Below, piece by piece: positions 1-510 of a stretch of 510 nt of DNA (its first letter is position 1; every line of letters starts with the position of its first letter). Position numbers and translations under genes: made by a program. A model generated the notes under the pieces. It made no database searches. It saw only the letters and a list, made by a program, of their open reading frames with translations, and was not told the DNA's origin. Source of the DNA: Escherichia coli (GTDB taxonomy: Bacteria > Pseudomonadota > Gammaproteobacteria > Enterobacterales > Enterobacteriaceae); assembly GCF_003334255.1 (NCBI RefSeq), contig NZ_QOWU01000228.1; one strand, written 5' to 3'.

Positions 1-138
1 GGCCTTGAACTGAAAGCGCCTGTAACTGATGACATCAGCAGAGCACTGGCTTTTGCCATTAAGTGGGTGGCGGTCGGTGTTGCTGTGTCCCCGATGCTGT
101 ATGGGCTGGCAAAACTGGTCATTGCGTTGAAATCGTGA
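1..138 (+). CDS. 3' end of an unidentified ORF (5'-truncated by the window); C-terminal 45 aa with a hydrophobic, possibly membrane-associated tail
   Basis: Frame 1 is the only + strand frame open from position 1 (frames 2 and 3 hit stops within the first 30 nt). It translates to [45 protein letters not shown] and ends at TGA 136-138. The stop sits immediately before the RBS of the next gene, giving operon-like packing. No family recognised; it does not resemble the C-termini of lambda R or P22 gp19 endolysins as I recall them. Confidence 0.4.
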
Positions 139-139
139 A

Positions 140-146
140 GGGAGGA
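140..146 (+). promoter_or_regulatory. Shine-Dalgarno (GGGAGGA) for the small membrane protein gene
   Basis: GGGAGGA at 140-146, core GGAGG at 141-145, about 7 nt upstream of ATG 153. Strong match to the anti-SD complement with canonical spacing. Confidence 0.6.
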
Positions 147-152
147 TTAAGC

Positions 153-284
153 ATGTCAGACAAACTCATAACGCTGGCGAAGATCCTCTGTGTAATTGTC
201 GGCATTTCATTTTCACTAATGCTGGTTGCTCTTTTTCTTTCCATGGCCTGGATGATGTTGTCTTCGTCGGGGCTGCTGGGGTGA
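153..284 (+). CDS. Small single-pass membrane protein, 43 aa, function unknown (lysis-cassette-associated)
   Basis: ATG 153 preceded by a strong SD; stop TGA 282-284. Translation [43 protein letters not shown]: short charged N-terminus (D, K, K), then about 26 uninterrupted hydrophobic residues, then a short Ser/Gly tail, consistent with an N-in single transmembrane helix. The track ORF 63-284 shares this frame, but its first 30 codons start at GTG without an RBS and overlap the frame-1 ORF, so ATG 153 is the likelier start. Confidence 0.6.
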
Positions 285-295
285 ACATAAACCGA

Positions 296-510
296 ATGCT
301 TTCCGCGTTTATCGTTATTCTGCTGGTGGCCTGTGGAGCGCTGTGGATGGCAACAGACCATTACCGTGATAACGCGATTACCTACAAAGCGCAGCGCGAT
401 AACAAAGCCAGTGAACTGAAGCTGGCGAACGCAACCATTACTGATATGCAGGTGCGCCAGCGCGATGTTGCTGCGCTCGATGCAAAATACTCGAGGGAAT
501 TAGCCGATGC
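296..510 (+). CDS. Rz: Rz-type inner-membrane spanin (i-spanin), N-terminal part; 3'-truncated by the window
   Basis: Frame 2 from ATG 296 reads [71 protein letters not shown] and is still open at the window end. N-terminal hydrophobic signal-anchor ([18 protein letters not shown]) followed by a charged, helix-prone periplasmic region. From [14 protein letters not shown] to [13 protein letters not shown] it closely matches lambda Rz as I recall it (memory, not a database hit). Missing from the ORF track, presumably because it has no stop inside the window. An alternative in-frame start is GTG 281. Confidence 0.85.
493..498 (+). promoter_or_regulatory. Probable Shine-Dalgarno (GAGGGA) for the embedded Rz1-like gene
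   Basis: GAGGGA at 493-498 lies inside the Rz reading frame a few nt upstream of ATG 507. Lambda has AAGGAG at the equivalent position ahead of the Rz1 start (recalled). Confidence 0.4.
507..510 (+). CDS. Rz1: Probable start of the embedded o-spanin (Rz1-like lipoprotein) in the +1 frame of Rz; only the start codon is inside the window
   Basis: ATG at 507-509 is in frame 3, i.e. +1 relative to Rz. It spans the D and A codons of the Rz motif ELADA, which is where lambda Rz1 starts (MLKLKMM...) as I recall it. The coding body lies beyond the window, so the signal peptide and lipobox cannot be checked. Confidence 0.5.

Follow-up and report, generated by a model that had tools for sequence, protein, structure and literature searches.

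A probable recombination seam between the membrane anchor and the periplasmic domain of Rz in a widespread Escherichia coli prophage

Does the Rz spanin gene of this Escherichia coli lambdoid prophage have a single history, or was its membrane anchor joined to a periplasmic domain of different descent? We addressed this question in a stretch of 510 bases (the window; negative positions lie upstream of it and positions above 510 downstream), which had a 100% match in the lambdoid prophage lysis cassette of E. coli 118UI and also in isolated phages of the PhiR12 series, PhiR12_1 among them. Matches to the window were present in 1807 of 5426 genomes. Records matching it at ≥99% numbered 477 (E. 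coli), and at least 80% of it was covered in 1033 records. E. coli genomes often carried several lambdoid prophages, with a median of 2 places per genome. The annotated order of genes was class II holin, YdfR, lysozyme R (177 aa), ORF1, ORF2, Rz with embedded Rz1, and terminase, so that Rz lies late in the lysis cassette, downstream of the holin and the endolysin. The following features were recognized in the window:

1–138, plus strand: 3' two-thirds of ORF1, a small membrane protein of 60 aa (annotated CDS WP_021566721.1)
153–284, plus strand: ORF2, a hydrophobic small protein of 43 aa (annotated CDS WP_001280932.1)
281–510, plus strand: 5' half of the Rz i-spanin gene (Pfam PF03245, E = 2e-49; phrog_13, E = 2e-73)
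287–358, plus strand: N-terminal transmembrane anchor of Rz, 24 codons, of a non-lambda class termed W (from segment identities)
343–358, plus strand: 3' sub-block of the anchor, of WMATD as against SLGLN type, with a second internal junction at about 342/343
356–403, plus strand: conserved junction block of 48 bases, codons 24–39, first residue D/N, corresponding to bsq7 of Sf6
359–510, plus strand: beginning of CC1, the periplasmic coiled-coil domain of Rz, lambda-like (88.8% identity to lambda)
507–510 (ATG 507–509), plus strand: start codon of Rz1, the o-spanin gene embedded in the +1 frame and truncated where the window ends

The Rz reading frame extended past the window end, to 754, and matched PF03245 (E = 2.2e-49, model positions 1–125 of 126) and phrog_13 (E = 1.7e-73); the Pfam model starts only after the HYRD residues. 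Annotation of the start codon was inconsistent: PGAP places it at ATG 296, and the PhiR12_1 record has it at window 347, a choice that would leave the protein without its anchor. The true start is probably GTG 281, overlapping the ORF2 stop as GTGA. This GTG/TGA overlap was kept in 44 of 44 loci of the window's subtype, and one locus (L078) has ATT at the equivalent of window 296. Translated from GTG 281, the anchor as read from the sequence would comprise an unbroken 18-residue hydrophobic run with an Arg before it. The original prediction had placed the N-terminal segment at 296–358; its end agreed with our results, as the break falls after base 358, but its start probably has to move to 281. 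Within this start region (window 281–298), relatives with ATG at the equivalent of 287 carried ATA and a 5-base deletion that brings the GTG in frame. For the embedded gene, translation from 507 gave MRELKMKLFALTLPLVVSAC..., which aligned with lambda Rz1. The product has 60 aa and a lipobox-like sequence, LVVSAC, and it matched the Pfam Rz1 model PF06085 (E = 1e-19); GAGGGA at 493–498 is its likely ribosome-binding site.

Comparison with lambda revealed an abrupt change in similarity. A blastn search against lambda 45000–47000 returned a single alignment, covering window 359–732 at 82% identity, and no alignment to lambda S, R or Rz upstream of window 359. In lambda Rz, as in the common relatives of the window's gene, exactly 24 codons precede the His codon; an ungapped comparison of the two anchors is therefore possible from window 287 onward, and this register of 24 codons on each side was used in the Fisher and shuffle tests. 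In this register, window 287–358 matched lambda Rz codons 1–24 at 25 of 72 bases (35%), and codon-shuffled lambda anchors gave 20.7 ± 3.8 matches, with 15% of shuffles reaching the observed value. In comparison, 135 of the 152 bases at 359–510 matched lambda Rz (88.8%; Fisher p = 2.4e-16 for the difference), and a max-chi-square scan placed the best breakpoint after base 358. The pairwise alignment to lambda Rz thus showed a sharp break at 358/359 and not uniform divergence. The proposal that lambda Rz is followed almost codon for codon from about 359 was borne out, as was its counterpart, that the anchor part and everything upstream are unrelated to lambda S-R-Rz. Two gapped treatments of the anchor were discarded: a global alignment of the gene from ATG 296 with its lambda counterpart placed gaps throughout the anchor, which masked the equal 24-codon length, and MAFFT anchor identities of 50–57% were inflated by inserted gaps.

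Between window 359–510 and lambda, dN was 0.06, dS 0.43 and pS 0.33; for the anchor, synonymous divergence was saturated (pS 0.66). CC1 of the window was 91% identical to Min27 and about 88% identical to lambda. The lambda-homologous block ended near window 719–732, outside the window. Near the 3' end of Rz (positions 6719–6800 of locus L001, window 719–800), where lambda homology stops, Min27 was about 100% lambda-like with bor downstream; unlike in Min27, bor was missing downstream of Rz in the window's prophage.

The descent of the two segments was examined in a set of Rz genes comprising 80 relatives of the window's Rz and 80 relatives of lambda Rz from IMG/VR, with lambda, P22, ES18, HK97, 4A7, mEp460, 689R5, Min27, phi191, SF11, EPP-1 and Sf6 added. 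The search with the lambda Rz protein yielded near-identical lambda-type loci alone (96–100%), and intermediates were chosen individually from the phage collection. Two anchor classes were apparent, with identities of 60–100% within and 32–39% between them. The lambda class comprised lambda, HK97, 4A7, 689R5, mEp460, P22 and ES18 (mutual identity 72–100%), and the W class the window, Min27, phi191 and L073 (60–81%), where L073 denotes the IMG/VR locus IMGVR_UViG_2851933302_000002. The window's anchor was 35% identical to the lambda class and 65–81% identical to Min27, L073 and phi191. Both classes share the length of 24 codons and the residues M1, R3, V4, L19 and N/D24, and they may go back to a single ancestral segment as very old alleles instead of being imports from an unrelated gene.

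The periplasmic part fell into two types that cut across the anchor classes. CC1 of type one was found in the window, Min27, L073, lambda, 689R5 and mEp460 (82–99%), and type two in phi191, HK97, P22 and 4A7 (92–97%). Each anchor class was found with each periplasmic type, the four combinations being represented by lambda, HK97, phi191 and the window. Lambda and HK97 were 99% identical in the anchor and 52–79% in the remainder; phi191 and HK97 were 39% identical in the anchor and 95% in the remainder; and phi191 and the window were 81% and 60–71% identical, respectively. L073 was 35% identical to lambda before 359 and 100% identical from 359 to about 520, and it was 100% identical to the window's Rz over 524–628. 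Its Rz looks like a recent three-part recombinant of W-class anchor, lambda block and window block. A PHI test on 91 unique Rz genes gave 0.469, against 0.707 ± 0.010 in 1000 permutations (p < 0.001). A recombination breakpoint at the boundary between transmembrane and periplasmic domains, as first proposed, is supported by the four combinations, the conserved lambda-class anchor, the switch of L073 at 359 and the PHI result.

Exchange was not confined to this position. Stx phages of the phi191/P13374 type were 93.5% identical to window 281–342 and then carried a different 16-base end of the SLGLN type, and all four combinations of 5' and 3' anchor halves occurred. Further recurrent junctions were located at window −115, −106, −69, −46, 22, 139/153, 275–285, 320–325, about 510–525 and about 719–732.

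The seam coincides with a boundary that has already been annotated in another phage. In the GenBank record of Sf6 (NC_005344), a feature named 'bsq7; boundary sequence' lies at Rz bases 70–117, AATCATTACCGTGATAATGCAATCGCCTACAAAGAGCAGCGCGATAAA, and it aligned to window 356–403, position for position. Among 14 diverse Rz genes, mean pairwise identity was 0.45–0.62 over the 72 anchor bases, 0.85–0.93 over 359–400, and lower again beyond, so that the block at 356–403 is a conserved stretch with a non-homologous flank. In a spread sample of 677 phage records (query base 159 corresponding to window 359), alignments starting exactly at window 359 were obtained for lambda, 434, ES18, P22, HK97, HK542, CUS-3, mEp213, mEp460, 4A7 and a Klebsiella phage, with overall identities from 67% to 86%. 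The codons of the HYRDNA block were nearly invariant, but in a sample in which two tight clusters and preferred codons predominated. The pattern of four combinations and the patch in L073 put the junctions at the 5' edge of this block. As in the window, bsq7 of Sf6 is a conserved island of the same 48 bases (codons 24–39) flanked by non-homologous modules; the left flank differs, being a lambda-class anchor in Sf6 and a W-class anchor here, that is, an alternative module at the same boundary. The boundary-sequence concept reportedly goes back to Clark et al. 2001, on HK620, and Casjens et al. 2004, on Sf6, and the bsq features of Sf6 presumably follow their idea. The stretch of HK620 at 33000–38297 was without the lysis genes of that phage.

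The anchor classes also differed in the DNA that precedes them. We sorted 170 loci by the sequence upstream of Rz, 86 of them lambda-class and 84 W-class. The set was gathered by taking the nearest relatives of two query proteins and is therefore not an unbiased census of how anchor class and gene context go together. In the lambda class, the Rz start overlapped the endolysin stop in 86 of 86 loci, whichever of four endolysin families was present (lambda R, P22 gp19, the 4A7/phage-21 type or the window's lysozyme type). In the W class, Rz lay at least about 300 bases from a window-type lysozyme in 83 of 84 loci, and in the remaining one (L076) the upstream sequence was too short to tell. The intervening DNA consisted of ORF1-ORF2, ORF2-ORF1, ant-ORF2, ORF2 alone, or about 300 bases without these ORFs. 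Thus, in this biased sample the W-class anchor occurred only where Rz was separated from the endolysin by an extra spacer, and the entries of the phage collection, likewise no census, agreed with this link. The window's endolysin family was directly fused to lambda-class anchors in 689R5, mEp460 and L150. Because the same endolysin family occurs with both anchor classes, the anchor class follows the variable spacer and not the holin-endolysin module. The suggestion that the anchor and the upstream genes came from a different lysis module would consequently apply to the linked spacer upstream of Rz and not to a different holin-endolysin module.

In eleven loci (L047-L050, L053-L055, L057-L059 and L064; about 2140–2400 in most), the order was ORF2 then ORF1. 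There, ORF1 was cut to its C-terminal 40 hydrophobic residues and started at a GTG overlapping the ORF2 stop (GTGA). Because the truncated ORF1 starts at the same GTGA, the ORF2 stop itself is a module junction.

Taken from sequence comparison, the 5' half of Rz is very probably part of a predicted functional i-spanin gene in which modules of different histories were joined by recombination at the seam. Codons 1–24 can be placed in the anchor class of Stx-phage-like prophages and have no detectable nucleotide similarity to the lambda/P22 anchor, codon 25 onward can be placed in the lambda-type Rz lineage, and the seam maps to the 5' edge of the conserved block of about 48 bases annotated in Sf6 as a boundary sequence. 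Related phages would have recombined repeatedly at this block, either by homologous exchange within the conserved stretch or by illegitimate exchange followed by selection for intact domains, and the exchanged segment would have begun immediately downstream of the endolysin stop codon and ended with Rz codon 24.

The seam could be real and the imported part nevertheless be the other one, namely periplasmic CC1 from a lambda-type Rz brought into a resident gene with a W-class anchor, in which case the anchor and the upstream genes were not acquired. We regard this as a possible but somewhat less likely course of events. L073 carries just such a patch, lambda-identical from 359 to about 520 between a W-class anchor and a window-identical 3' part, and the further junctions at about 510–525 and 719–732 are in keeping with it. 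On the other hand, CC1 of the window is about equally near to Min27 (91%) and to lambda (88%), with a dS of 0.43, and a recent donor could not be singled out. In the sample, anchor class and upstream context went together without exception, which co-transfer of spacer and anchor fits at least as well.

A history without any recombination, in which anchor and periplasmic domain descended together and the anchor diverged past recognition under little constraint beyond hydrophobicity, appears very improbable. It draws on three observations: an artificial anchor works in lambda Rz, which speaks for weak sequence constraint (PMC5295617); the W-class anchor is more diverged than CC1 (69% against 91% between the window and Min27); and another i-spanin pair is homologous save for the N-terminal anchor (Kongari et al., PMC6139136). 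However, the 47 mismatches among the 72 anchor bases (65%) are at shuffle level and exceed the neutral ceiling of 0.33 taken from the adjoining synonymous sites (p = 2e-8). Moreover, the lambda-class anchor is 72–99% conserved between phages whose periplasmic parts are 52–80% identical; it is therefore not free to drift, and relaxed constraint cannot explain the break. The existence of all four combinations of anchor and periplasmic part, and the 100% identity of L073 to lambda directly after the seam, likewise speak against an undivided history. That the seam is an artefact, from a chimeric contig joining two prophages or an annotation error, is scarcely credible: several lambdoid prophages per E. 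coli genome can confuse short-read assemblies, although no positive evidence of this was found, but complete genomes and isolated phages contain all 510 bases unchanged, among the 477 records at ≥99% and the 1033 covering at least 80%.

Returning to recombination at the conserved block, recombinants would remain viable because all that the anchor does is hold Rz in the inner membrane, and the coiled coils and the embedded Rz1, which act in membrane fusion, stay together. The anchor domain of lambda Rz comprises residues 1–24, and the protein remains fully functional when residues 5–24 are replaced by an artificial transmembrane segment (Cahill et al., PMC5295617), which makes the anchor an interchangeable tether. 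The coiled coils and embedded Rz1, which are bound to co-evolve, sit together across the seam from the anchor. Judged by the dS of 0.43 to lambda, the exchange is an old event, common to the whole Stx-phage-like group and not peculiar to the window's prophage. Mosaicism has been modeled both as homologous exchange at short conserved boundary sequences and as illegitimate exchange with selection (PMC3233612). Neither the direction of transfer nor the choice between homologous and illegitimate exchange can be read from the sequence.

Lambda Rz/Rz1 (PF03245, PF06085) offers the closest comparison. In both systems the N-terminal anchor of Rz has 24 residues and periplasmic coiled coils follow it, and Rz stands last in the lysis cassette with an Rz1 lipoprotein gene embedded in the +1 frame; the product of the window's gene may also have the type II inner-membrane topology of lambda Rz. 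In contrast to lambda, the 72-base anchor of the window's gene is unrelated at the nucleotide level (35%), the gene follows two small ORFs with no overlap of an endolysin stop and likely starts at a GTG overlapping the ORF2 stop, and its extreme 3' end and the downstream DNA differ. The Stx phages 933W/Min27 and phi191/P13374 share with the window the W-class anchor family (Min27 69%, phi191 81%), ORF2 directly upstream of Rz, and inserted DNA that separates Rz from a SAR-type lysozyme R. Unlike the window, they carry ant, an antirepressor gene, in the place of ORF1; Min27 Rz starts at its own ATG with a ribosome-binding site, and phi191 has a P22/HK97-type periplasmic domain.

With its module border at a domain boundary and with both proposed mechanisms fitting the seam, the window is one more instance of lambdoid mosaicism, from which it differs in nothing essential. 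The modular theory of lambdoid phages is reportedly that of Susskind and Botstein, and Juhala et al. 2000 are said to have described the pervasive mosaicism of these phages. As far as the alignments indicate, the seam is an ordinary case of such mosaicism; its boundary was annotated before, and the prophage that carries it is very common. The view of it as a typical domain-boundary swap was confirmed as an unexceptional case. It offers a clean worked example of domain-boundary mosaicism and has little weight beyond annotation, for which it implies that whole-gene Rz trees would be misleading.

A more far-reaching reading, which we consider unlikely, is that the two anchor classes go with different modes of spanin expression, that the conserved block enables phages to exchange the context in which Rz is expressed, and to take up additional genes between endolysin and spanin, while the fusion machinery stays intact, and that ORF1 and ORF2 are unrecognised lysis modulators. 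The lambda-class start overlapping the endolysin stop suggests translational coupling, and W-class Rz would, if this reading were true, be expressed from a ribosome-binding site of its own or through coupling to the small ORF2.

ORF1 and ORF2 lie between the endolysin and the spanin (window 1–284; L001 5956–6284), both with good ribosome-binding sites, and were present on at least about 1000 contigs. ORF1 starts 44 bases before the window and matched phrog_1115 (E = 1e-42), a family of unknown function; ORF2 has the consensus Shine-Dalgarno sequence GGAGG 7 bases before its ATG and matched phrog_4906 (E = 2e-23). Neither had a match in Pfam, NCBIfam or PADLOC, and their cluster names were 'hypothetical protein' in every case. 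Both showed signs of purifying selection, with dN/dS between diverged copies of about 0.04 for the C-terminal part of ORF1 and 0.25–0.55 for ORF2. Two widespread small membrane-protein genes thus sit in the lysis cassette without an assigned role. Between the endolysin and ORF1, outside the window at −110 to −78 (L001 5890–5922), there is a strong terminator-like hairpin with a 14-bp stem and runs of A and U on its flanks (−21.6 kcal/mol, z = −4.5). A minus-strand Rfam rimP-leader hit over the hairpin was sub-threshold (E = 0.34) and was taken as chance. The mosaic junctions at −115, −106, −69 and −46 flank this hairpin.
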